A stretch of DNA of 64,000 bases from Iphione sp. A-MEVVRFRX5 (taxonomy: Eukaryota). Position 1 is the stretch's first letter; every line of letters begins with the position of its first letter. This document shows, one piece after another, positions 4,594-64,000 of this stretch. The notes beneath the pieces were generated by a model. The model was not told where the DNA came from and ran no database searches. It saw only the letters and a list, made by a program, of their open reading frames with translations. The stretch is from assembly GCA_976226885.1 (NCBI GenBank), contig OZ320318.1, positions 80,042,001-80,106,000 on the forward strand. Direction: 5' to 3'. Both the position numbers and the translations under genes were made by a program.

Positions 4594-4873
4594 AATTATC
4601 ATTATAACCTTCTAACATTAGCATCAGGGTTACATAAAAGTTAACTCGATCGGTGTGTGAACTCCACCATGCACTTAATTTTTTTTTATTCCTGACCTGG
4701 AGAAAATGATATTTCTGAGATTCAAACAATAATTAATATCCAGTTAAACGTTAAAAATTATAGCTAAAATACATTGGTTTCTCTATTCCTATATGGTTAA
4801 TGTGGTAACCAAGTTGTGGAGTCTCTGGATAGTGAGGCTGAAGTGTATGTTCTGAGGTGTAATCAATAATTAT

Positions 4874-6538
4874 GTAACCCGTTCTGGCAAGATGAGTTTG
4901 AAGATACAGGTGCTAAAACTGAGATGTGGGCTTCTGAAGTCGAAAGTTGGTCAAATTATGCAAAATGGGATTTTGATTGTTTTCATATCTATTGCATCTG
5001 AAGCCTATTCTGTATAAAACATTAGACTCTCATGATAACTATAAGTGCTACCAATATGGCTCTCAAGTTGGAGGATGCTTGAGTGCACAAACACAAAAGG
5101 ACCTTCACCTGGGGCTATTTTCCCAAACTTGAGCAGCTTGCCTTGCAGTCCTCCTATCATCCCAGCCCCACCTCCCAGGTACCTGCTGAAAGAATGCAAA
5201 GTTCTAGCAAATAGTCCCTTCATATTTTGAAAGTGCATTCTTTTGGACCAATGACAAGGTGTTCTCATGTAAGTTGTTATGTAAACAATCATTGCAATGA
5301 AGGTCACATGTAGCAAATGTGGTGTCCTGATTGGTCGAGAGCCTCCCCCATGCTTTTGTTTGGTTCAGTTTCAATGTCTGACTCTGCTGTGAGCAGATGT
5401 GTTCCTCCACTCTAGTCATGAATAATAATTGATACAAATGGAATTAATGTAATGTTTGGAGGCAGAAGCATCAAGGAACAAACAGGCATGGCCATGGAAC
5501 AGGCCTTGGTGGATGCTGTAAATAACATCAGTCAGGCCAACTCACAAAGGTAGCTGCAGAAGCAGGATGGGGGAATTTAGTCAATGAGTACTCTCTCTAC
5601 AAGGAGGAGGTGGAGGAGGACATGGTGGAGGAGGATCCTCTTGCGGAGGTGGAAGAACAATTTGAGGAAGAGGAGGAACCATTAGCGGAGGTTGATGATC
5701 CACTGGTAGTCACCAATCCTATGCATGAGATCCTAAAATATTCACTATGAAAACTTCAGGTGAGTTTTTTTAATTCATCAGTTGCTTCCATCAATCTAAG
5801 AAAAAAACCTATCTAAAACATTGTCTTTCTAGTTGTAAATCCCCTTGAAGATTCTGAAGTATCTTGTGAACATGTTAGGATAGCTTTTCCATATTTCATT
5901 TGTATTTGGGGCCATTTTAGAATTTCTTAACCCATGACAAACTGAAAATTGGAACATTTCTTGTAGGTGTCCTTGAAAACACTATAATAATGATAACTGC
6001 AGCAAACAGTTCACAGTGAATGAATCGGCAGAGAGATGTCAGGAAGTTTTCTAGCTGTCCTCAGGTACTCATTATTTCCCAAACTTGTTCTAAAACTTGT
6101 TGAGACTAGTAGCAACCATTATGCAATTTTTAGTGAAGATGTATAGCTAGAAAAATCCCTTTAGTTTGATGTCTGCCAAAGATTATTGTCAACTTGTTGT
6201 TGGTTTTACCCATGTGAGAAAAAAACAATCCCATGTCAACCCTACCCATGTCCATCGGATGTCATCTATACCCATCTCTTTTAAGGGAAAAGGACATGCT
6301 ACTCCAAGGCATAATAAGCACTGTCACCACCATCGGTGCCATGACATTGACATAGAAGAAGAGGGAAAAGGGGAAACACAAGAAGCATGCTCCATGCAGG
6401 CACTATTTGGTTGGTTTCAAGATCATTTTGCAGGGACACCCTCATTAGATAGCTAAGAAATGGCAGATTTTGATGAAATGTAACCAAACTTTGATTTTTT
6501 CTGACTTCCAACTCATTTTGCCAGAACTGCTATGTCAT
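4874..6538 (+). mobile_element. Degenerate internally deleted Sola1-like element, same family as 52652-57060
   Basis: TIR remnants gtaacccgttctggcaagatgag and ctcattttgccagaac...gtcat|atat. Colinear homology to the promoter and exons 1-3 of the transposase at 52780-54360, with stops and indels. The catalytic exon 4 is missing. Confidence 0.85.
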
Positions 6539-38720: not shown

Positions 38721-39590
38721 ACCCATGAACATTTGATAACATTTTTATAAATGTTATAAAAAAACACATTTTTACTTGATTATAACGTTTCCAACAATTT
38801 TAAAACATTTGAAAAACGTTTGGAGACATCTGAGGGCAACAGGAGGACGGCCAAGGACATGGGTAGCACTTGCAGAGGTATGGCAGACATCTGAGGGTGA
38901 CAGGAGGACGATCAAGGCCATGGGAGTACCTGGAGAGGTGTGAAGACCTCTGAGCACAACAGGAGGACGAGGAAGGATGTGGGTAGCTACCTATAGAGGT
39001 GTGGCGAATTCTGAAGCTGACAGGAGGACGGGCAAGGACGTGGGTAGCACTTGATGAGGGATAATGACTTCTAGGGATGACAGGAGGATGGGAAAGGCCA
39101 GGGGAGCTCGTGACAGTGTGCGAGGACTTCTGAGTGACCGGAGGATGGCCAACGACGTGGGTACCACCCGGAGAGGTTTGGGAACGTCTAAGAGCTACAA
39201 GGGGAGAGTCAAGAATGAGAAGGACACCTGTAGAGGTGTGAGGACTTCTAAGATTGACAGAAGAGATGTGGCAATGTCTAAGAGCTATAGAAGGACAGCC
39301 AAGGATGAAGTGGTACAGCGGATGAGAGCATCAGCTTTTACATAGGACATGTACGTAGAGACAACTCATGACTAAGGAGCCAGGGTCAAACCTCCCCAAG
39401 CCCAGGCCCTCAAAGTCTCACACTTTTTCTAAAAAAAATCTAAAACCGTAATACAATAATATTATAAAAATGTTCTTTTTTTATCTAGTTAAGAAAACAT
39501 TATGCAAACTTCATTTACAATGTTTTTTCATTTAGAACCTTTTTTTAACGTTTTTACAACGTTTCTACAACACTTCTGTGTTGGCTGGGA
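38721..39590. mobile_element. Unclassified TIR element carrying ~55-bp purine-rich tandem units
   Basis: Right end caacacttctgtgttggctggg, left aacgtt-rich arm, internal caggaggac(g/a)gccaagg units. Sister copy at 46192-46958. Confidence 0.65.
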
Positions 39591-46191: not shown

Positions 46192-46958
46192 TAGCAGCAC
46201 AGAACGTTTTAAAACCGTTTTGTAACGTTTTTATTTGGTTATAACGTTTGCAAACAATTTATAACATTTAAAAGCCTTTTCATTTTGTTGTAATGTCTGC
46301 AACCTTTTTAGAAATTTTACAAACGTTTTTATTTGTTTATAATGTTTGCAACCATTTTAAAATATTTCAAAAATGTTTCAAGGGTGGTGTAATACTTCAG
46401 GAGGTGTGGGGACATCTAGGAGCAGATAGGAGGATGACCAGGGATGGGGGAGCATCTGTAGAGTGTGGGGACCTCTAAGAATGATAGGAGGATAGCCATG
46501 GACAGGGCTAGGACCTGTAGAGGTGCGGGGACCTCTAGGAGTGACAGGAGGACATCCAAGGACAAGGGGAAACCTGGAGAGGTGTGGGGACCTCTAGGAG
46601 TGACAGGACGACAACCAAGGGCAGGGATATCACCAGACAATGTGTGAGGACGTCTACGAGTGACAGGAGAATGACCAAGGCTGGGGGAGTATCTATAGAG
46701 GTGTTTGGCCCTATAGTCCAGTGGATATGAGCGCCACCCTTTACATATAAGGACAATGGCTGAAGAACCAGGTTGAAACGCTGCACAGATCTGTCTCACA
46801 CTTTTAGTCAAAAATATTCTCAAAAGTTTTTTTAATAAAATCACTCTAAAGATGTTTGCTAATCTGGTTAGAAAAATGTATGCAGACATTCATATACAAC
46901 ATTTTAAGAATTTTTACAACGTTTTTAAAACATTTTTACAACATTTCTGTGTTGGCTA
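46192..46958. mobile_element. Second copy of the TIR element at 38721-39590
   Basis: tagcagcacagaacgtt / acatttctgtgttggcta inverted ends and the same internal tandem units. Confidence 0.7.
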
Positions 46959-52322: not shown

Positions 52323-52651
52323 CTAGAAGAGTACATTAGAGCCACAATAGATTAGACAATGTCAATTCCCGACTTGATTTGTTGGTCACATGCAGTAATT
52401 TAGAGTAATTTACACTTGATTGTTTCTGATATCAATATAGCTCTTTTCTAGTTTGACAAGTATCAGTTAGGTTAACGCTTCTTGGCTTTTGAATGTTGCT
52501 GTGAAGTTCTGACAGTACCATCTAATTGACATACATGAGACAGTAATTCTGGGACAAAATGAACAAAATTCCTACATTAAGAACCCGTATTAGCAAGTGG
52601 AACTTCAGTGTTACCCATTGTCACAAAATTAACAATATGGAAATACCATAT

Positions 52652-55600
52652 GTGACCTGTTTCAGCGAAATGAGTCGGAAGTCGCAGGGACTAAAACCGA
52701 GATATGGGCCTCCAAAGGCGGATGTCCGTCAAAATATTGAAAATGGGGTTTTTATTGTTTTCATATCTATCATGTCTCAAGTTTATTCTGTGAAAAAATT
52801 AGACTCCCACGATGAATATAAGTGCCTGCAATATGGCTCTGAAGGTAGTAACTGCTTGAATGCATACAGACAAAAGAACCCTCGCTCGGGGCTATTTTTT
52901 CCAAACTTCAGCAGCTCACTTTTGGGTCCTCCCATCATCTTAGGCCCACTTCCCGGGTACCTGCTGAAAGCGCGTGAATTTCCCTAGCCAATGACGCCTT
53001 CAGATTTTGAAAGTGCATTCTTTCTGACCAATGACGAGCCGTTTTAAAGGGGGACGTCATGTAAACAATCGTTGCCATGGGGGTCACGTGTGGTGAATGC
53101 CGTGCGCCGATTGGTCGAAAGCCTCCCGCGTGCACGTGTTTGGGTCAGTTTAAATGTCTGGCTTCGCAGTGAGGGGACGTGGGTCGCTGCTCTAGCCGTG
53201 GATAATAATTAATAGAGATGGGAATAACGTAGCATTTGGATGCAGAAGTGTCTGCCAACAACCAGGGATGGCCACGGATCGGGCTCAAGCCTTGGCAGAT
53301 GCTTTAAACAACATCAGTCGGGCCAATTTACATGGCGTGGCTGCAGAGGCACAATGGCGGAATCTCGTGGATGAGTACTTTCTCTATGAGGAGGAGGTGG
53401 AGGAGGGCCTGGCTGATGAGGAGGAGGTGGAGGAGATAGAAGAACAATCGGAGGAAGAGGAGGAACCCTCAGGAGAGGTTGAGGATTCACTGGTAGTCAC
53501 CAATCCTACTGAGGAGATCCTGAAAGACGAGTGGGCACGCTGTGAAAACTTCAGGTAAGTTCTCTTAATCTGCCATAACAGTGATGTGCAGTTGCACTGA
53601 ACAATCGAAGACCAAACTATTAGAAAATTGTCCCTATAGTTACAAATCCCTTTACAGATTCTTAAGTATCTGGTGAACATGTTAGAATAGAATCTTGTGA
53701 ACATGTTAGAATAGGTTTTTGTATTTAGGGCCATTTTAGAATTTTTTAAACTATGAGAAACTGAACATAATTATGAACATTTTCTGTAGGTGTTTAGACT
53801 ATTGTATTTAGGGCCATTGTAATTTTTTTTTTTGAACTGGGAAACTGACCACGTGAAAATTGCCTGCAGGTGCTCTTGTAAACACTACAATGACGACAAC
53901 TGCAGCAAACAGTTCACGGCAACTGAGTTGGCAGACAGACGGCAGGAGGTTTTCCAGCTGTCTTCAGGTACTTATTGTTTCCCGAACTTGTCCAACCTGT
54001 TGAGATTGTAATTATGTAACCATTCTGCATTTCTTCTTTAAGATGTGTAACTGGAAAGATCACTTCAATTTGACGTGTGCCAAAATCATTAGTATTATTG
54101 ACTTGTCAGTGTAACCCTTGCCAGAAAAAACCAATATTATGTCAATCCTATCCATCTTGATGAGACGTCATGTATACCTGTCTCTTCTAGGAGAAAAAGA
54201 CATGCTTCTGCAAGGCATAATAAGTACAGTGACAGACATAAGTGCCATGACCTCAACATGGAAGAAGGGGGAAAAGGGGAAGCACGAGCGACGTGCTCCA
54301 TGCAGCCACTACATGATTGGTTCCAAGGTCATTTGCAGGGACACCTTTAAGTTTATGTATGCGTGAGTATCCCTCATCCTTGTACCTATTATTTTCTTAC
54401 AGGTAGCTTAATGCTAAAATGTAATTTCATGTATTTATAGTGCTAACAGTATGAGTCAATAGATAAGTATATCAGAGGAGTCATGGAGTATGTAACCACC
54501 CACCAATTAAACATGACAACCAACATGCACTTGTATTTATGGTCTACTCTCTTGGTTAGATATTAAGGGTGTTTCACTTTGCCTTCCAGCATCAGCCAAA
54601 ACAAACTGACCAGCATTATTCAATGGTATAAGGACAACGGCGTTGTCCCCCGTGTCAAGAGGGCTGGTGGGAGACAGTCCAAAACCAAGATCCTCCACCT
54701 CACCGATATCCAGAGAGTCGCAGGGTTCCTCACCTCGTATGCTGAGACCAACGCCCTTGTCCTGCCTGGCCGTATAGCTACCCACAAGCGTGATGATATT
54801 CTCCTCCTCCCCTCATCTGCCACTAAGGCAGACATCTACAAACTGTATCGTCAAGCTATGGAAGAGTCTGAGTACAGGTGTGTAGCAGACTCCACATTCC
54901 GGAATTTGTGGCTACAAGTTCTTCCCCGTATAGTTTGTTCCCGCCCAAAAACTGACCTATGTTGGGAATGTCAGCGTAACTACAGGGATATTTCCTCATC
55001 AAGTAATCTCCCCGAGGTAGTCAAGGCAGCAAAACTTAAGAAGCAGCAGAAACATCTGGAGGTTGTAACAGCGGAAAGGACATTTTATCAGAATATGGTG
55101 AAGAATGCCAAGGCTGCCTACCGGGAAGCCAATGCCCCAGTCCTTGGTCCACACCCACCTTGTTCCGTAGACATAGCTACTCATATCAGTTTTGATTATG
55201 CCCAGCAGGTCCACCTCCCCTCCTCCCCCATGCAGCCTGGGCCTCTTTATTTTCTAGTCCCACGGAAGGTGGGTATCTTCGGGGTGTGCAATGAGGCTAT
55301 TCCCAAGCAGGTCAACTATCTTATAGATGAGGGACACTGTGGGAGCAAGGGATCAAATGCTGTAATCTCATATTTGCACCACTATTTTGAGAAGTTTGAT
55401 CTGGGTTCTTGCTCTGTGGATCTGCACTGCGACAACTGCAGTGGCCAGAACAAGAACAATTGGGTGCTAGCATATCTGATGTGGAGGGTCCTGACTGGTC
55501 GGCACCACACACTAACTTTGAACTTTCTTATAACTGGCCACACAAAGTTTGCACCGGACTGGTGCTTCGGTTTACTGAAACAGAAGTTTCGGCATGAGTC

Positions 55601-57060
55601 AGTATCTAGCTTATCCGATTTGTCTCAAACAGTACTGAGGAGTACCCATGATCAGGTCAATGTTCCCCAACTTGTTGGGGATGAGTCTGGGAATGTCTAT
55701 GTCCCAACCTATGACTGGCAAGCTTTCCTCTCGCCTTTTATCCGATGTTTGCCAGGTATTAAGCAGTTTCACCATTTTGAGTTCTCCAACCAGAACCCTG
55801 GGGTTATCTCTTACCGTGAGTATGCAGACAGCCAGCCAAACACTTTCAAGATGTTAAGTGTTGACCCCCAAGCAGTCCCCAGGGGCCCTCCTCCACCCGT
55901 TCCCTCCCCCGGTTTGTCTACCAAGAGACAGTGGTATCTGTTCAAGAACATCAGGGACTTCTGCACAGAGGAGACCAAAGACATTATGTGCCCGAAGCCA
56001 TCTGTTCCTGAGCCCAAGGTGACAGAAGCAGAGTCAGACACAGAGCCAGGACCAGCTCCAGGACCAGCTCCAGGCCCAGCTCCAGGCCCAGCTCCAGGAC
56101 CTGGTGAGGAACGCCCTGCACGAGGCAGAGGCAGGGGCAGAGGCAGGGGCAGAGGCAGGGGCAGAGGCAGAGGCAGAGGTAGGGGCCGTGGGCGTGCCCA
56201 GACCCCTGACACTTCAGAGGAGGAGGAGGAGGAGGAGGAGGAGGAGGAGGAGACGTTCAGGCAAATGGAGAGGTCCAGCTCGGACCAGGACTCTGACTTT
56301 GAACCTGAGCTACAAGCAAAGCCACAACGTAAGCGTGGTAAAGGAGGTCGTGGTCGACCAAAAAAGACCAGATAAACTTGTTCTACTTGTTCTACTGCTG
56401 ATGTTTGAATAATTATGTGCAATTGAAAACCACAAGTGGTTTCACTAATAAGTTTTACCAAGACTTTTTTCAAGACAGTTCATTATTTATTTTTATTTTT
56501 ATTTATACCTCCAAGACAATGGTTTCAACCAATCCAAGACAATCTTAAGACAATCATGAACACTTATGCAGACTATTTTACAAGACCAGGGTCAACCTAC
56601 AGCCCCTTTTTTGTCTTCTAGATGGAGGTACTGTGATACTTTTTGCTTGCCTTATTAGGTTAAGTTTTCCATTCCAGAGTGGAATTTTGTCACATTTTCA
56701 GAGGCCGGCATGAATAAAATATTATGTCTCAAAATGCATGGTTCTTTGGTATTTTGTAGCTTAGATAGTGTAGATAGACTATGTTGAGTTTCAGGAAGAT
56801 TGAGAAAAAAGAAGAAGCTGTTGCTAGGGTAGACTGCCATATAGTGCGGTACCAAAACTTCGAACGCAAATATCTCAGTTTCTCTGTTACGGTTTACCGC
56901 ATCACTATATAACTTCGTCGTTTCACTACATTTTGCCTAATTCCAGTAGGAAGATGCGCTATACCTCGTTTTAAAGGTCAGAAACTACATTTTTTCATAG
57001 AATATATAACTCAAATTTGATTTTTTCCGACTTCCGACTCATTTTGCCAAAACGGGTCAC
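52652..57060 (+). mobile_element. Full-length Sola1-like DNA transposon (4409 bp)
   Basis: ATAT target duplication (AWWT type) on both sides. 33-bp TIRs GTGACC...GAGTCGGAAGTCG with 4 mismatches. Intact transposase gene. Confidence 0.85.
53268..56375 (+). CDS. DDD transposase, join(53268..53554,53870..53967,54191..54362,54590..56375), 780 aa
   Basis: All introns GT-AG, phases 2, 1 and 2, and total length a multiple of 3. Catalytic-like motifs SFDYAQQ, CDNCSGQNKN and GHTKFAPDWCFG. The tail has PGPA repeats, (RG)n, poly-E and RGRPKK. Confidence 0.9.
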
Positions 57061-57785
57061 ATATAAAGTCGTGCATTACTACCATAGGGCTATGACCATA
57101 TATGCTTTAAATTGAAAAGGTCCACTCAGGTACAGATAGCAGGGAGAGTGACCGTATTGTTAAGAGCCAAAGGAGTCCTGATTAAAAACATTCCACCGCA
57201 CATTGAAACTTTCCTGTTCAAGGTCTGAGCCGGGAATTACAAAAAATGGTGTGCTACAAGTGCAAGTAAAAGGAGTCAGATATAGGAAAGGAAATGATCT
57301 TCATGACAAAAGGAAGTTTGTAAACGTGAAAAAATAAATCCCAAAGGTGAGGAGAGTTACTGCCTGCGTTAAGTGAACCAACAATTAAATTGACTTCAAC
57401 AAGCAGCAAGCTTTTAAGGATCTTCTACTTATAATGTTAGGTTACACCATTAATTTTTTAGAAAAATATTTAGGCAATTTAATATGTGATATATGATCAT
57501 TATTGCTACACAGGTCTGCTTTAGCTGCTCATGTGGTTCATTTTGGTCTGAAATTTTATAAATTACCCGAATTAGCTTCGTCAGATTCTCAATGTATTTA
57601 CTGGAATAAAACTCATACCCTTGGTAAGAACATCTTGCATAAACTTGGTCCTGTAGAGGGAGGTATCGAATATGGTAGAAGATATTCAGGAGATACAGTA
57701 AAAGATTTTCAAACCACAGATAAAAAGATTACTGAGGCAATTAAAACATTCAGAGACCAAAATACAGCGAGCATAGGTGACATAC

Positions 57786-58261
57786 TGTAGTTTCTACTTG
57801 GGTTCAATAAAGAACTGACAACTCTGAGTCCTGATTCCAAACTGTCTTTATTCAGGTTCCCTCTCATATTTATATCTTTTCTCCAATCAAGGCACTAGCC
57901 AATCATCCGTCAGTATCAGAGTAAGAGAATACATTGTTACCTCCTTTAACAGTCCTTTCAACTAACCCACCAATCAGGAGAGGGCAAAGTATCACCTTTG
58001 GGCTGTGGAACCACAGCCGAGTGCTGCCGATCCAATCACAAGAAAGCTTTGAGACTCCAGGGTAGTTTGTTTTAAATCCAGGGGTGGCTGTGGTACTACA
58101 GCGACCCTTAGTGCATGTGCACCGAGTCCAGTACTCCTGCACTTACTTCGTATAGCCAGTGCACCCCGACTGTGGCACCACACACTTCTGCGCACAGGGC
58201 GTGTGCCCGTACCTCCACCTGTGGCACCACAGCTCGAGGCCGGATCCTGCATACCACTACA
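57786..58261 (-). mobile_element. 3' LTR of the Gypsy element (476 bp)
   Basis: TGTAGT...ACTACA inverted termini. Minus-strand polypurine tract AAAGAGGGGAGAG abuts at 58262-58274. Minus TATAAA at 57874, AATAAA at 57852, several CCAAT boxes. Confidence 0.9.
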
Positions 58262-58502
58262 CTCTCCCCTCTTTAAATTACTCCCACCTCTGAGGGATGG
58301 GGCGAAGTATTACACCCTAGAAGATCAATGTAGGAACAGCAACTCTAACTCAATCTCCAACACGATAGCCACTAGGTAGCTTTCTTAATTTTAGCACTAA
58401 TGAAATTTCTCTCGCCGTCACTACTTAACACCTGCTAAAGTCTTACAACGCATCTACTCCCAAAAGTATCTGAGTGTCCCTGAGCATGCAGTCTTATAAG
58501 CC

Positions 58503-58702
58503 TGAACTACGGCTTACGGCCGTGGTAGTTCAGTAAAACAGTCATATCAAATGAACTAAGGCTTACGGCCGTGATAGTTCAGTGAAACAGTCATATCAGA
58601 TGTGGAGGTATGTAGTCCTCTGAATGTGAAGTAAGGCTTACGGCCGTGGCAGTTCAGTAAAACAGTCATATCAAGTATGGGGGCTTAAGGCCGCAATAGT
58701 CC
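58503..58702. repeat. Three full and one partial ~47-bp hairpin-forming repeats with variable spacers
   Basis: tgaactac-ggcttacggccgtg-gtagttca-gtaaaacagtcatatca at 58503, 58552 and 58627, partial at 58681. Confidence 0.9.
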
Positions 58703-58948
58703 AACCAACCAATCACATAAAAAAAACACTATCATACTTTGAATTCAACAACGGAGAAGCCCGTGTTGGGCGAAACTTGACCTCTACGTAAACTCTGAAT
58801 CTGGCCTCACTCTCTTGGAGGAAAGTTTGATCACCGTGATGATATCAGTCTCACGTGGAGTTTGAGGCCCGAGCAACAACACCAACTCAACAAAAACATT
58901 CTTTACCCGCTCGGGCCCCTACTCACCACCCTGTGGAGGTCGGCTGTT

Positions 58949-60590
58949 CTACTCCTCCGTCCACATCACGTCAGTGTTGGTGCAACACTGCTGAGGGGGG
59001 CAGGCCTCCAGGAGGTCCCACACAGTGGGGTCCTCCGCTCGTTGTTGGGCCCGCGCTGCTTGTGCCTCCCGCTCCCAGGTGTCGAAGACCTCGCGCCTCG
59101 AGACCGCCGTTGCCTCGTAGGCCGGACGCAGGTCTTTGAGGAGGTTGGTCGCGGCTTCGATCGATCGGTTGTGCCAGCGGGTGACACGTTCGCGGTCGCC
59201 CCACTCGAGCCGGTCAGGGATCAGCATCCCTTCCAGCGCGAGAACCAGCCGCCTGACCAGGGGGTCGATGAGGTGCTGCGGCGATGCCTCCGACTCAGCC
59301 AGGGCCAGAACCCACGCCAAGGAGGAACTGGCGATGAAGCGAGAGGTTGGGCTCATCTCCATCCAGCGGGGAGGGGGCCAATCCAGCCGCTGGGGAAGGC
59401 GCACCATAGTAGGAACCATGACGGCTCGCCGTACCGCCAGGTAGGGCAGCACTCGGCCGTCCAGAATTTCCCGGACTCGGCGGGACAGCGGGCCGAGCAT
59501 GGGCGTGGTGAGTTCCCGTTCTGCCAGTCGTTGAAGGTGTCCTGGCGGGAGAGCTGCCTCCCGGGGCCGATCGCTTGACGGACCTCGAGAGGGTACGGAG
59601 GCCTCCCAAGCCGTCAGGGTGTCGAGGAGGGCGGACGGACTCCAGTCAGGGGTCGGGAGAGATGGCCCCCCTCGCAGCAGACTGGCGACTGACGTGGGCG
59701 TCCCTGGAGTGGCGCTGCTGCTTCATCATCCACCACTGCCGGCTCTTGTTGACCCCCACGGGCCTCCGGTGACGGGAGATACACCCGGCCCCAGGCATAG
59801 GGCACTTGTGGTGCATCCCGGAGATACCCCCACCCGGCAGGAGCTGGAGGCATAGGCAGGGTGCGGTCACTCCCTACGCTGCCCTCCCCAGAGTCGGATG
59901 GGGAAGCGGGACGTCCAACGGCGGCAGCGGCCGGTGAGGTGCACCAGCGGGCTCGGCCAGAAGCATGGGGCGGCTGGGACTGCGGCGGGGGTGTGGACTC
60001 CATTGCCGACGAAGAAGATGGTCTGAGAGGCCCGGGTGGGGGCCTGGCTGCCGGTGTCCGAGGTGCACTGTGCCCAGACAGAAGAGAAGACGGTTGCCGC
60101 CCCCAGACGACGCGCCGCTCGGGGAGGCTCGGCCGACGCTCGGCCGACGCTCTAGGATCTCATCTACCTCCGCCGGACCCATGAAGGTGCCCAGAGTGGC
60201 GGAGAGCTGCCGGGCTCGGATGATGACGTCAGCCCAGTTGTCATCGGGCATGAAAAGTTCCCCTGCGTCGCCCTGTTGATGGTCGAAAAGGCTGCGGTAG
60301 GCGGGGTCCGTCAGTCCCCGCTCCACGACCCACGGATGACGCCGCCGCAAATGGGCGAGCCAGGTGCCAGGCTCGCCTAGGACGCTGGGACAGAAGAGGC
60401 AGTCCATCTGTCGATGTCGGCGGCCCCCATGCTGCTCCTTCTGATGACGCTCCAAGGACTCCCCCGCCCAATACACCCGGTGGGGTGTGCAGAGCTCCCA
60501 CCAAGCTGTACCAGGGGGCAGGGGTTCTCCCTCCTCTACCTGGGGTGCCGGGGGACGTGCCACTTTCTGCCGGGGCATGCCGCTTGCCAT
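58949..60590 (-). pseudogene. Accessory C2H2-like zinc-finger ORF of the Gypsy element (~545 codons, two frameshifts)
   Basis: ATG at 60590. CLFC-x12-H-x4-H finger plus a degenerate upstream finger. Removing the 11-bp duplication at 60130-60151 joins ORF 59614..60003; a second shift near 59700-59730 joins ORF 58949..59500. Confidence 0.65.
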
Positions 60591-60619
60591 AGAGAGAGAC
60601 GGCCAGACAGGGTGGTTGT

Positions 60620-61545
60620 ATAACCACAGGCTCGTTGACAGTACTGGTTAGGTCAAGACGTGGGGCCACAGACTACAACACACAGAGATGATAATCGGTG
60701 CTATCTAACAATCAGCGACAGACAATCGCTGTGGCACCACAGACAACAAGCTTACTGCACTTGGGGTGGCCACTCAGCCGCCCTTACCTGTCGTCAGAGA
60801 TGGAGGTGCGAGGTGCAGCGAGGCCACAGCCCGGTGATGGCGACTGCCGCTCCTCGCCCAGTCACTCGATCCTTCTGCAGCGTCTGCCTGAAACCGTGGT
60901 CTGTGGTTCCACGCTCACGATCAGCTTCCTGTTTCTCAACGCCCCGTCGGATGTGTCCACACAGAAAGACTTATTTTTGGCACTGTCCCCCGGCATCCCC
61001 GCTGTTCTTCTCAGCCTCCTCTCTCCCTCACGTGGCCAGCTGTGGTGCCACGGGCCGCCATTGATCACGTCTCGCGAGACCACGGGTTCTCTCGCGCCCC
61101 GCGAGATCCCGCGTCTCGCGTCCGTATCTCATCTGCGGGCCCACAGCGAAACTGCTTACCCTACGACTGCTGAAGATTCATTCTTTTTGTACTATAGGGG
61201 ACTGGCAGGGATAGGACAAAAACTGTGCTACACCATTCTATTTCCCTTCCTTCGGCTGTGGCACCACAGGCACTTTCGCTGAGTTCTCCCTCTAGAGGGC
61301 AATACCTCCTCCCCGCCTGTGGTTCCACAGCCCGTTCACCTGATACATTGTATCGGCTATTTCCCCTGATTCCACCAATCACTCGTTATGTTAGATTTCT
61401 GTGGCACCACAGTACGAGTGGTTACCCTCTCAGCCAATCACTCGAACGCCAATGATATCTGTGACACCACATACACGATCTTCGCTGCCCGCCGTAGCCA
61501 ATCATCTTGGCCCACTGCACCCCCCCCCCAAATATAAATGAGATG
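60620..61545. promoter_or_regulatory. Putative divergent internal promoter
   Basis: At least 7 CTGTGG-NN-CCACAG-type palindromes, four CCAAT boxes (61375-61503) and plus-strand TATAAAT at ~61534, lying between two divergent ORFs. Confidence 0.6.
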
Positions 61546-61688
61546 AGCTACAGCCAGCCTCCTTCATCTGGACTCTTGCTGCACCTCACCAGGCTCCTCT
61601 ATCCTTCCAGCTACCCCTTCCAGCTACCCCAGTTCTACAGGTACCCGTCTTATGTAGGAATGGCAACTGCTTAACATCTTTGAACTAG

Positions 61689-63702
61689 CTGAACCGGAGA
61701 CAAACCACCCCTAGGGGGAAGGAACAGACCAGGGGAGTGAAGGTACTGAGGGCAGCCTCTGATATTACGGTTCCCCCTGGGGAAGGGGTGGGGGTCCCAG
61801 TGTCTCCCGGTGGAGAGGGCCCATTCTTGGTAGAGGGCTTAGAGGAGGGCCGGTTATTACAAGGGGTGGTAGGAGTGCGTTGTGTTGTAAGCCAGGTGCT
61901 GCCCGTGTGGAACACTGGGGAGAGGGAACTGTTGATCCAACAGGGGACGTCTCTGGCCCTTGGCTCACCAGTGCAGAGGGAGGAGGTTACTGACTACCCC
62001 CAAGATCACCCCCCGAAAGTGGCTACCACAAAGGTGGGGACAGGGGCCGTGATGGATGAGTTGATGGCCACTAAGAACTGGAGACGGTTTTTCTCCCTTT
62101 TTCAGCCTAAACCCAGCCATGACCAATCAAGGGACCGCGTTTGGGCACCTTCCTGCTGTGGTTCTTTGGCCTTATCGCATGTGAGTGTTTGGATAACTCT
62201 TCCTCTACTTCCACTCGTTCTAAGTGTTATCCAACATCCCCTCTTCCTGAAGTTTAGTGTCAGCCAGATCCGTCTTCATTTTTCCTGCCTATTTTCTCTT
62301 CCGTAGGCTCCGCTATCGGCCCACCCTGCCCGGGTCGACCCCCTCCGGCATGAGCATTCACACAGAAGGGCCGGTAGTACGAGTTCTCGGCACCCATTCA
62401 TCTTGCCTGTTCCGGGCCGTCTGGTCTTCCTTGGACCGCTTCACGTGATTGACCTGGTGGTACGCCCCGTCGCCCCTCCTGGCTCGGCGCGACCCCCGCC
62501 AACGATGCCTGCCCCGTCAGACTGGGCCGCTTGCTACACCACCCCGGTGCCCCCACCGGCCTCTCCCTCCTCCAGTGCTTCCGGGTATGGCACCGACAGC
62601 CCTTCATCCCTTACTAGCAGTCGTCTGGACCCCTGGGGGTCCCACCAGGACCTTTCCGCGATGGGCGCCTCACCACCCCCGGCAGACGGATCGGGTCGCC
62701 CCTCTCTAAGCCCACGGCCGTCACCCACCCCGTCGGGAGAAGACTCTGTACCGCCTCCGTCTCCGGCCGTCACGAGGTCAGAATGCACTACCCCCGAGAT
62801 AGGTGATGACATCTCCCGCAGCTCCTCACCCCTGGGGACTTCCCCTCCGGGAGGCCATGTGCCCTTCTCGGCGATTTCGACTCCCGCCCTGGCAGCCTGG
62901 TATCGTCAGCTTCGTTGGGGTGACGCCCCCTTCTGCCCTATCCTGGTATCTTCCTCCGATGAGGAATAGGACCTTGATCAGTAACTATACTCCCCATGCT
63001 AAGTACTCTGTAGCTGCGTGGCTGACATACCTTGAAATAAATTTCAACTAACTAATTTGTCCCCCGTGTTCGTTCTATGTTCTATTCGCTCTCAGACTTA
63101 ATTATAAACACCCTTCTCGTCGTCCCGCAGCAGCGACCAGAGGACATAACCCGACCAGGTTCTAATTCCTTTGCCCTGGTCCGGGTTGGCTCTACCCCTG
63201 ATAGCGTGCCGGCTTGCCCAGAGGACAAAGCCTGGTCAGACCTCCGTCTCCTTCTGGCCCAGGCCGGCTCCACCGTCAGTTCCACCTTCGCGGTCTGTCA
63301 ACTTCTCAGCTACCACCGGCCTACACTGCAAGCGGCCGTAGTGCTGCCCTCCCTAACCGGGAGCTTTCTTCGCACACTATGGCTCGCCCTCCCACAAAAT
63401 CTCCAGAGCTGCCTAGGTCCCCTCCCGGAGGACGTCCCCCCACTTCTCCCCCTAGAACTTTTGGGTACCGCACCCGGGGATGTCCAGCCTCCCCCTCTGG
63501 AGCTTTTGGGTCCCGCACCCGAGGATGTCCAGCCTCCCCCCCCCTGGAGCTTTTGGGTCCCACACCCGAGGATGTCCAGCCTTCCCCTCTGGAGCTTTTG
63601 GGTCCCACACCCGAGGATGTCCAGCCTCCCCCTCTGGAGCTATTAGGTCCCGCACCCGGGGATGTCCAGCCTCCCCTCCCTGGAGCTCTCTGCTCTCCCT
63701 AG
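61689..63702 (+). CDS. Putative spliced antisense gene inside the Gypsy element: exons 61689..62180, 62307..62802 (or ..62969 stop), 63096..~63702
   Basis: CAT|GTGAGT donor and ttttctcttccgtag acceptor join in phase 0. AG|GTGATG donor and a branch-point-bearing ctctcag acceptor join in phase 1. Exon 1 resembles the dUTPase-like beta region of Gypsy pol. Start codon not found; one 2-nt slip in the repeat of exon 3. Confidence 0.5.
63413..63688. repeat. 45-bp tandem repeat, ~6 copies
   Basis: Unit cctccccctctggagcttttgggtccc(g/a)cacccgaggatgtccag; the plus frame reads LELLGP(A/T)PEDVQPPP. Confidence 0.95.
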
Positions 63703-63739
63703 TCCGACCTCCACTGGAAGATTTTTATCCTATCTTTTG

Positions 63740-64000
63740 CTACGAGCTCCCTTCCTTATTCGCACACCGCCGCCATGACTTGATCCAACGAGGTATCTCC
63801 CCTCGATACAGTCGTAAGCAATTCTGGTGCACCACCTTGGGGCAAGCCCGGGCTGCCCGTTGGACCACCAATCGCTCTGGGTCCAGTACCTTAGTGATGA
63901 GCCATGGACCCGTCCAGGGCAAGTATACTTTAGGGTTCTTCCCTCTGGGTGGTTGAGCTTCATGTAACCACACCGTGTTCCCTACCTGTAGGGGTTCCCC
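63740..64000 (-). CDS. Gypsy pol, integrase C-terminal GPY/F-SH3-like region (partial)
   Basis: LQVGNTVWL...PRGKNPKVYLPWTGPWLITKVL...KVVHQNCLRLYRG matches the Gypsy 'VGD.VWL...PKL...W.GP...VH..RL..Y' pattern. Confidence 0.88.
   Translation of the reverse strand, partial: GEPLQVGNTVWLHEAQPPRGKNPKVYLPWTGPWLITKVLDPERLVVQRAARACPKVVHQNCLRLYRGEIPRWIKSWRRCANKEGSS

Follow-up and report, generated by a model that had tools for sequence, protein, structure and literature searches.

What would two divergent genes, placed between the integrase and the 3′ long terminal repeat (LTR) of a Gypsy retrotransposon, do for the element that carries them? The locus that raises this question lies in a window of 64,000 nucleotides from Iphione sp. 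A-MEVVRFRX5 (contig OZ320318.1, positions 80,042,001 to 80,106,000), to which coordinates refer unless contig positions are given. A preliminary description had noted a sense zinc-finger ORF, an antisense multi-exon ORF, a motif-rich intergenic region and a hairpin array, and had read them together as an accessory cassette.

The host element and its cassette

The host element is a 10.9-kb Gypsy retrotransposon whose 3′ half is covered by the window. The 3′ end of pol (integrase) occupies 63740–64000 on the minus strand with its stop at 63740, and gag, pol, primer-binding site (PBS) and 5′ LTR extend beyond the window. Extension of the contig, a check proposed at the outset, recovered the 5′ LTR at contig positions 80110201–80110676, 4.2 kb past the window end and 98.1% identical to its 3′ partner; both LTRs are 476 bp long with TG...CA ends. 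The 3′ LTR (57786–58261, minus strand, TGTAG...CTACA) contains TATA, AATAAA and CCAAT boxes, and its palindromes lie at 58004, 58171 and 58220. It is preceded by a polypurine tract (PPT; 58262–58274, minus strand), which is the same in front of the LTR of other families, and pol stop, PPT and LTR lie where they were first placed. The target-site duplication (TSD) is 4 bp (GTAT, 57782–57785, minus strand, with its match at the 5′ LTR outside the window) rather than the 5 bp first proposed. Read by eye, 4-bp TSDs flank 11/11 copies of the window family, and in ten of these they are ATAT or GTAT. Paired LTRs with a TSD, gag followed by protease, RT, RNaseH and integrase, the PBS TGGTGTCAGAAGTGGGAT directly after the 5′ LTR, and the PPT place the element in Ty3/Gypsy (Metaviridae). 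The PBS is presumably that of tRNA-Leu. Homologues contain PF00078, PF17917 and PF00665, and the closest proteins are 39–55% identical, none bearing a Gypsy clade name.

The cassette was found neither apart from this LTR and pol, nor with termini or a TSD of its own, nor missing from any near-complete family copy, the three observations that the preliminary description had named as counting against it. Each of the 13 pol matches with ≥91% identity is accompanied by the cassette, the promoter being 3.2–3.5 kb away; conversely, 14 of 15 promoter matches adjoin family pol and the fifteenth adjoins a family LTR. The cassette is seen on six backbone lineages with integrases 65–86% alike, and the antisense exon is present in 10/10 representatives of other subfamilies, which had been picked by their zinc-finger gene. 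Many elements of the lineage have intact frames and identical LTRs. The group is large and recently active, carries the cassette in other subfamilies too, and is larger than first reported.

Comparison across copies, also suggested in the preliminary description, shows purifying selection on both ORFs. For shared variants in 11 window-family copies, the zinc-finger gene has a pN/pS of 0.15 (0.03 in its N domain and 0.11 in its C domain) and the main antisense exon one of 0.26, compared with 0.08 for gag and 0.14 for integrase in the same copies, in which the opposite-strand frames hold 3–16 stops. Between subfamilies, dN/dS for unsaturated domains is 0.04–0.10. Inserted copies show a signature of CpG decay (private CpG transitions 0.286 per site vs 0.064). 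The cassette belongs to the element.

The copy in the window is itself defective and carries a private insertion, neither of which could be seen when the two genes were first located, correctly, in this DNA. Both cassette genes are broken: two indels shift the frame of the zinc-finger ORF, which also has two stops and a Trp replacing its first Cys, and the main antisense exon has a frameshifting 19-nt deletion. Positions 61707–62076 (plus strand) are an inverted 370-bp piece of the same element's pol (protease–RT linker, 98.9% identity), found in one of 11 copies and lying within predicted intron 1, outside the cassette proper. A 205-aa plus-strand ORF at 61689–62306 was rejected as an exon because it is largely the product of this insertion.

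Two divergent accessory genes

The sense gene (58949–60590, minus strand; ATG at 60590 or 60578, stop at 58949) lies between the pol stop and the 3′ LTR, as first described, and in its protein family a disordered linker joins two C2H2 fingers and a helical subdomain to a 'WPP' domain that is conserved at the C terminus. All eight zinc ligands are invariant among 12 aligned members, and the family shows the C-x2-C...H-x3-5-H ligands and finger fold of C2H2 proteins, the window copy lacking the first Cys. The Pfam model zf-C2H2_4 matches 8/12 members at E≤1, with weak scores (best 2.7e-6), and a structural model of the N domain (pLDDT 83.7) contains two finger-like units, although the helices of these fingers are of an unusual kind and in part acidic (e.g., DEQSW). 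Against solved structures this model returned non-significant C2H2 matches only (best E 0.36; Z 3.5, rmsd 3.7, 63 aligned). The full-length model was poor (pLDDT 43.5) and a fold search with it was empty, and none of 8000 candidates matched the zinc-finger alignment in a word-based protein search. Distant homologues occur in Mytilus; the N domain did not align with the Mytilus fingers (probability 1.6%), and an Atlas search with the Mytilus C domain gave no match above 0.79. The N-domain tree lacks resolution.

A sense third ORF between pol and the 3′ LTR is also found in animal Gypsy elements, whose products, in the accessible text of these sources, are fusogens, a GDSL esterase or a DEDDy nuclease (errantiviruses, PMC13524379; bdelloid ORF3 types, PMC5408684). 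The zinc-finger protein, in contrast, combines a basic, K/R-rich N terminus with two C2H2 fingers. By hydropathy only, it has neither the signal peptide and membrane anchor of an env-like third ORF nor a consistent membrane segment, the 19-residue maximum being ≤1.27 in eight of nine proteins and 1.62 in the other.

The antisense multi-exon ORF was located on the plus strand as first described, its splicing being predicted. Its predicted core promoter (61375–61569, plus strand) contains four CCAAT boxes, TATAAAT at 61533 and an Inr-like TCATCT at 61564, and the TATA–Inr spacing is preserved in other lineages. A predicted non-coding first exon (61565–61640, plus strand) is uncertain, with a weak donor; predicted exon B (62106–62180, plus strand, ATG 62119) has a phase-2 GTGAGT donor in 11/11 copies. 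The main exon, exon C (62307–62969, plus strand, AATAAA at 63036), encodes a conserved N-terminal block, an S/P/T-rich region and the tail PILVSSSDEE, which is similar to a SUMO-interacting motif (SIM). SIMs consist of a hydrophobic core with an acidic or serine flank and bind SUMO. SIM-like tails occur in 5/5 lineage representatives, 0/10 gag and integrase controls and 6–16% of shuffles, by a pattern composed after the sequences had been seen; a count of 54/54 is left out as circular, because those exons had been selected via the tail pattern.

Long regions between pol and the 3′ LTR with a conserved antisense ORF, tandem repeats and a proposed regulatory role are likewise described for the plant elements Retand, Grande and RIRE2 and the fungal Boty, from lineages with TRP28-type domains (PMC7264820; PMC11963269). 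The antisense ORF of Retand and Grande is defined by such a domain and by the plant Tat lineage, whereas the present gene is from an animal genome and none of eight antisense exons matches a Pfam family at E≤1. Nor do the accessible parts of those reports mention a sense zinc-finger partner, a palindrome system or allele exchange.

Palindromes and allele exchange

The intergenic region proved as rich in motifs as first described. A putative internal enhancer (60659–61411) holds eight palindromes of the type TGTGG-NN-CCACA (starting at 60659, 60730, 60902, 61041, 61134, 61257, 61318 and 61400), against one in window positions 1–57785. TGTGGT resembles the RUNX site, a point against the functional model proposed below. 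ACATCCG (60948–60954, minus strand), the candidate sense core promoter, belongs to a motif (AAACATCCGCC.AGCCTCGT, with variants) that 11/12 representatives have upstream of the zinc-finger gene; the sense gene showed no clear TATA. The resemblance of the internal promoter to an LTR, as first proposed, is limited to motifs: no LTR alignment extends beyond the palindromes, and a relic LTR was rejected on that ground.

Family palindromes occur in 8/8 elements at 2–7 per LTR and 6–10 per intergenic region (expected ≤0.14), and the remaining two elements use GGGCCCG instead (15 and 12 intergenic sites, expected <0.4), a pattern written post hoc with the sequences already seen. Within this one host, half-sites vary by family (TGTGG, CGTGG, C/TGGGG or CGGG), and gag-pol has no family palindromes in any of the ten elements. 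Palindromes cluster in the LTR and the intergenic region, are lacking in gag-pol and depend on the family. In the two CGTGG families the fingers are the closest (70% vs 53–61%), whereas the antisense proteins are not (47%).

The zinc-finger gene forms an allelic module that can be exchanged. In two backbone families (integrase 92–99% identical) there are four deeply diverged zinc-finger alleles apiece, and enhancer, zinc-finger gene and 3′ UTR have moved as one block between backbones that are otherwise nearly identical. The antisense gene and LTR remain together through these exchanges, and joint transfer of the LTR with the zinc-finger allele was rejected. The palindrome spectrum tracks the zinc-finger allele, a co-variation that is partly trivial because enhancer and gene are physically linked. 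On one backbone, with the antisense exon 98% identical, the outer base of the sites is C:T 11:5 under allele 4 and 6:28 under allele 8 (Fisher p=9e-4, sites within an allele not being independent); CpG decay was rejected as the cause of the allele-8 shift, background CpG being no lower. LTR sites are ~50:50 C:T under both alleles and the LTR is not exchanged; therefore alleles of one family must accept the same LTR, and allele diversity within a family is mostly not a change of specificity. The window's own family has a single zinc-finger allele in 11 copies. Genome-wide, the series comprises at least four palindrome types, 12 zinc-finger alleles and six backbones.

Proposed function and related systems

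We hypothesize, with a probability of roughly 0.55, that the conserved cassette encodes a zinc-finger protein that binds the palindromes of its own LTR and internal promoter and switches them on, and a probably spliced antisense product that serves as a SUMO-binding anti-silencing helper. Basal transcription from the internal promoter would yield the zinc-finger protein, binding of 6–17 internal sites would close a feedback loop, and binding of 2–7 LTR sites would turn on genomic RNA. The acidic hydrophobic tail of the antisense protein would engage SUMO-marked silencing factors, and the antisense gene may retain its introns because genomic RNA is read from the opposite strand. Old alleles are probably maintained by frequency-dependent selection. 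The earlier reading of a self-regulating module akin to those of complex retroviruses gains strong circumstantial support from family palindromes common to LTR and internal promoter, although it is unproven.

A close known parallel is foamy virus, whose 3′ half contains an internal promoter for two accessory products, one of which is spliced, and whose Tas binds DNA elements to activate both this promoter and the LTR (PMC13220597). The likeness to Tas and Bet lies in a putative internal promoter and two accessory genes, one of them predicted to be spliced. In contrast to foamy virus as the accessible text presents it, the present element is a Gypsy element without env, its genes are divergent on opposite strands instead of splice variants of one RNA, and its candidate regulator, a C2H2 protein, comes in alleles that can be exchanged. 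More tentatively, the Gypsy lineage may have independently evolved a circuit of the complex-retrovirus type, with a sequence-specific zinc-finger activator in an exchangeable, polymorphic 'specificity region', an antisense SUMO-binding anti-silencer and an activator gene old enough for mussel elements to share; such a region might be held by frequency-dependent selection, in the manner of a mating-type locus or the immunity region of a phage.

Other functions would fit parts of these data. The zinc-finger protein could bind the same palindromes as a repressor that controls copy number or immunity, its alleles working among competing elements much as incompatibility types or the immunity regions of phages do. 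The presence of two homogenised backbones with four old alleles apiece, several palindromes that separate the putative sense promoter from the zinc-finger ATG, and VIDLT/VVDLT SIM-like motifs in backbone-1 alleles, which could recruit repressors, agree with this idea. We consider it unlikely, however, as finger 2 recognition residues and LTR sites are largely common to alleles of one family, which leaves DNA binding limited room to tell self from non-self, and as young pol-less copies retain both genes (3/3 examined) and still amplify.

Host transcription factors might instead read the palindromes while the zinc-finger protein binds hairpin-AAAA arrays, in Rev-like export or packaging, or steers integration, for which the biased TSDs would be relevant. 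On the genomic-RNA strand, the non-coding parts of 10/10 elements, but not gag-pol, contain short hairpins that differ in their stems and have AAAA after them; in the window, four of the 45-bp tandem repeats at 63448–63687 (minus strand) carry a 4-bp hairpin followed by AAAA. The 3′ UTR, moreover, is exchanged along with the zinc-finger gene. The 3′ hairpin array of the preliminary description is present as three short repeats with small hairpins in this UTR (58486–58674, minus strand), but their structure is weakly supported (z −2.0, 7/200 shuffles equally good) and an Rfam search of the array gave no matches. This explanation would call for four host factors, because one host has four types of palindrome, each of them common to LTR and internal promoter. 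As the site spectrum also differs between alleles of a single backbone, the explanation is doubtful, about as much so as repression.

It is improbable that the conserved N-terminal block of the antisense protein reads the palindromes with the zinc-finger protein as accessory partner: the antisense gene does stay with the LTR and motif class tracks backbone family, but the protein is not basic (11–15 K+R), its tree pairs a CGTGG family (F547) with a GGGCCCG family (F667) at 96/96 support, and internal sites change while its exon remains 98% identical. Finally, a nested insertion or captured passenger DNA with no role in the element, to which the broken window copy with its private insertion and two old zinc-finger fragments (C1b, C22b) without antisense exon or own pol nearby might point, is already largely refuted by purifying selection, by the six backbone lineages, by the lack of own termini and, in another source, by a homologue that lies upstream of an LTR-like end.

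How animal transposons resist silencing is largely open, and the best worked example found of a sequence-specific counter-measure is VANC, a plant DNA-transposon protein (PMC5735166). In Arabidopsis VANDAL elements, short motifs are dense in non-coding parts and differ between related families (PMC5735166). The sequences examined here are similar in having dense, family-specific motifs in non-coding parts and a candidate regulator with conserved domains around a variable region. VANDAL motifs, however, are described in the accessible text as non-palindromic and spread through tandem repeats, unlike the spaced palindromes found here in unalignable DNA and in common with the LTR. Searches in the main text of largely open-access literature yielded no description of a sense zinc-finger and antisense pair, nor of old alleles exchanged between near-identical backbones in Gypsy elements. 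The natural series within one genome makes self-regulation directly testable, and the exchange of old alleles between near-identical backbones points to selection among retroelements. The antisense gene, in turn, offers an example of how an element that replicates through RNA could retain introns.

Linkage of the cassette to the Gypsy element

The element, a 10.9-kb Gypsy retrotransposon on the minus strand of a 1.18-Gb animal assembly (window G000:C13:80042001-80106000), has its 3′ LTR at 58261-57786. The 5′ LTR, whose recovery by extending the contig had been proposed in the preliminary description, is located outside the window, and the two LTRs share 98.1% identity. The continuing sequence (L001) encodes gag (288 aa) and a Gypsy-ordered pol with one interrupting stop. 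The closest pol proteins share 39-55% identity with it; those with names are from molluscs, arthropods, fish and a cnidarian, with a few bacterial or viral labels. Target site duplications, read by eye, are 4 bp in 11/11 copies of the window family and ATAT or GTAT in 10 of these 11.

The accessory cassette had been described as a module of this element, and its presence across copies agrees. Its intergenic DNA has 15 genome matches, and each of the 13 pol matches of at least 91% identity has a partner of its own among them; of the remaining two, one is paired with an 81% pol and the other adjoins a family LTR with no pol match. Three 400-bp pol fragments (86%) on contig C6 have no cassette counterpart among the intergenic matches of the whole genome. 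A zinc-finger (ZF) query returned 1115 candidates, of which 150 were scored, and the antisense (AS) exon is present in 10/10 representatives chosen by ZF frame length. From 150 AS matches, 40 loci were chosen by hand; 39 of these have the ZF N domain and 38 the C domain. The cassette is part of the element.

The window copy is defective: two frameshifting indels and two stops disrupt its ZF ORF, whose first Cys is changed to Trp, and AS exon C (62307-62969, plus strand) has a 19-nt deletion. A piece of this element's pol is duplicated in inverted orientation at 61707-62076. The duplicate is 98.9% identical to that pol, 92.7-96.5% identical to pol of the nine other copies retaining that part, and missing as an insertion from 10/10 other copies; it probably arose by template switching around the time of insertion. 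A 205-aa plus-strand ORF was rejected as an exon, being mostly due to this piece. Non-autonomous derivatives also occur (L085, L093 and L096, with L103-L105), with LTRs 99.9-100% identical, most or all of pol missing, and gag or part of it kept with both accessory genes.

Two other Gypsy elements sit inside copies of this lineage (L042:5730-8201 with L101; L102 with the end of L040). In both, a two-finger accessory region unlike that of the cassette follows integrase in the same reading frame; the fused open frames are 1424 and 2443 aa long and include extended disordered segments as well as SIM-like stretches. These regions do not match the C-domain profile. The window also contains a DNA transposon at 52648-57064, bounded by inverted ends of 37 bp and encoding 602 aa (ORF 54567-56375; DUF7869, E 3.7e-20), and a second copy, 74-79% similar, at ~4871-6428. 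Two arrays of ~60-bp diverged repeats (38814-39308 and 46463-46700) have similar AT-rich flanks and are likely copies of another repeat element.

Coding evidence and homologues

The dN/dS comparison proposed earlier finds both ORFs under purifying selection. Shared variants among the 11 window-family copies give pN/pS of 0.15 for ZF (N domain 0.03, linker 0.31, C domain 0.11) and 0.26 for exon C, with 0.08 for gag and 0.14 for integrase. Opposite-strand frames contain 3-16 stops, and the wobble-sharing frame also has a low ratio, as expected. Between subfamilies, dN/dS is 0.04-0.10 for unsaturated ZF domains and 0.14-0.49 for the AS exon, the higher values coming from few changes. By these measures, both genes code.

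Five other lineage groups, read by eye from sequence, share predicted signals of the AS gene: a TATA box, an Inr-like hexamer ~30 bases on, an ATG exon whose donor is in phase 2, a poly(T) tract and an acceptor of the same phase. The predicted exon B (ATG at 62119) ends in phase 2 in 11/11 window-family copies. A further donor-like site ahead of the poly(T) suggests possible other splice paths. In L042-L050, in the intron before the main AS exon, a strong CAG|GTAAG second donor-like site precedes an uninterrupted stretch of ~20-45 T (A on genomic RNA) that is kept across lineages, and alternative or recursive splicing is possible there. A SIM-like, hydrophobic-acidic tail closes the main AS exon in 5/5 lineage representatives versus 0/10 gag/integrase controls and 6-16% of shuffles, the pattern being post hoc. 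Drosophila piRNA-guided silencing includes SUMO-SIM contacts, according to passages of 10.1101/2021.07.27.453956.

All eight zinc ligands of the ZF N domain are kept in 12 members, and its structure model has a pLDDT of 83.7. The C domain, searched with the window copy, matches no Pfam family and is new to Pfam. A full HMMER search gave four matches at E of 0.001 or below, the best (2.3e-7) being the Mytilus edulis protein P0121, with two C2H2 fingers that do not align to the ZF fingers of this lineage and a C domain aligning at 95% probability; another search found 15 proteins, of which 10 are named as Mytilus. The gene model P0134 joins an integrase-like stretch, so labeled at source and without a Pfam match, to a following ZF gene. 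At another locus, L110, a 630-aa ZF and C-domain frame precedes the purine tract seen in this lineage and then an 852-bp end, TGT...TTACA, which we read as LTR-like, a single end being present. This end (L110:4474-5325) holds five GGACCG/CGGTCC hexamers and the 4.5 kb before it two, so that the hexamer may be a repeated site belonging to that element.

Family-specific palindromes and exchangeable alleles

In 8/8 elements, each LTR has 2-7 copies of a 5-2-5 palindrome and each intergenic region 6-10, versus at most 0.14 expected, and gag-pol has none; three of the eight have one or two more in the AS or ZF frames. The remaining two elements use GGGCCCG instead. In LTRs of the window family the half-site is TGTGG in 74/74 cases; backbone 1 has mostly CGTGG and backbone 2 C/TGGGG. 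The 57.8 kb of window outside the element hold one loose match. Because the LTR and internal promoter align only at these sites, the palindromes were kept or gained separately. Short G-rich hairpins followed by AAAA, with differing stems, lie on the genomic-RNA strand in non-coding parts of 10/10 elements (window 63448-63687; 3′ UTRs of L042-L051) and are possible RNA export or packaging signals.

Clustering 61 loci at 85% gave six backbone types and 12 ZF types, with four ZF types each on backbones 1 and 2; the window family has one allele in 11 copies. Backbone 1 copies are 98-99% identical in integrase, 95-98% in the AS exon and 93-98% in LTRs, and their ~2.4-kb ZF block is 64-74% identical where alignable, with dS above 2 or saturated. 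On backbone 2 the exchanged block extends from immediately upstream of the AS promoter to the polypurine tract. The N and C domains always travel as a unit, and the alleles cluster according to backbone. Within backbone 2, outer C:T counts are 23:13 for alleles whose finger-2 helix has Ser at position 3 and 13:47 for those with Ala there (p = 6e-5, from four non-independent alleles). LTR sites show no shift, which limits this argument.

A candidate regulator of the element

The cassette would work in the manner of foamy-virus Tas/Bet (PMC13220597) and VANC (PMC5735166). It occupies the same slot as plant antisense aORFs (PMC7264820, PMC11963269). The cassette is a member of none of these systems. 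Passages of PMC6238403 and PMC13524379 do not describe the ZF and AS pair, and no such pair came up in searches of the literature; single ORFs may be annotated in repeat databases.

An element-encoded reader is the simplest account of family-specific sites common to LTR and internal promoter in one host, with the ZF protein as the leading candidate. That this protein represses or confers immunity is a less likely reading, and it is similarly doubtful that host factors read the palindromes and the ZF protein acts on RNA. That the AS protein is the reader seems improbable. We give almost no credence to a cassette of passenger DNA.

We favor an activating ZF circuit, at a probability of about 0.55. 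Young pol-less copies keep both genes (3/3). CpG sites in copies decay 4.5 times faster than other C/G sites, which suggests germline methylation; an activator or anti-silencer would for that reason be useful to the element.
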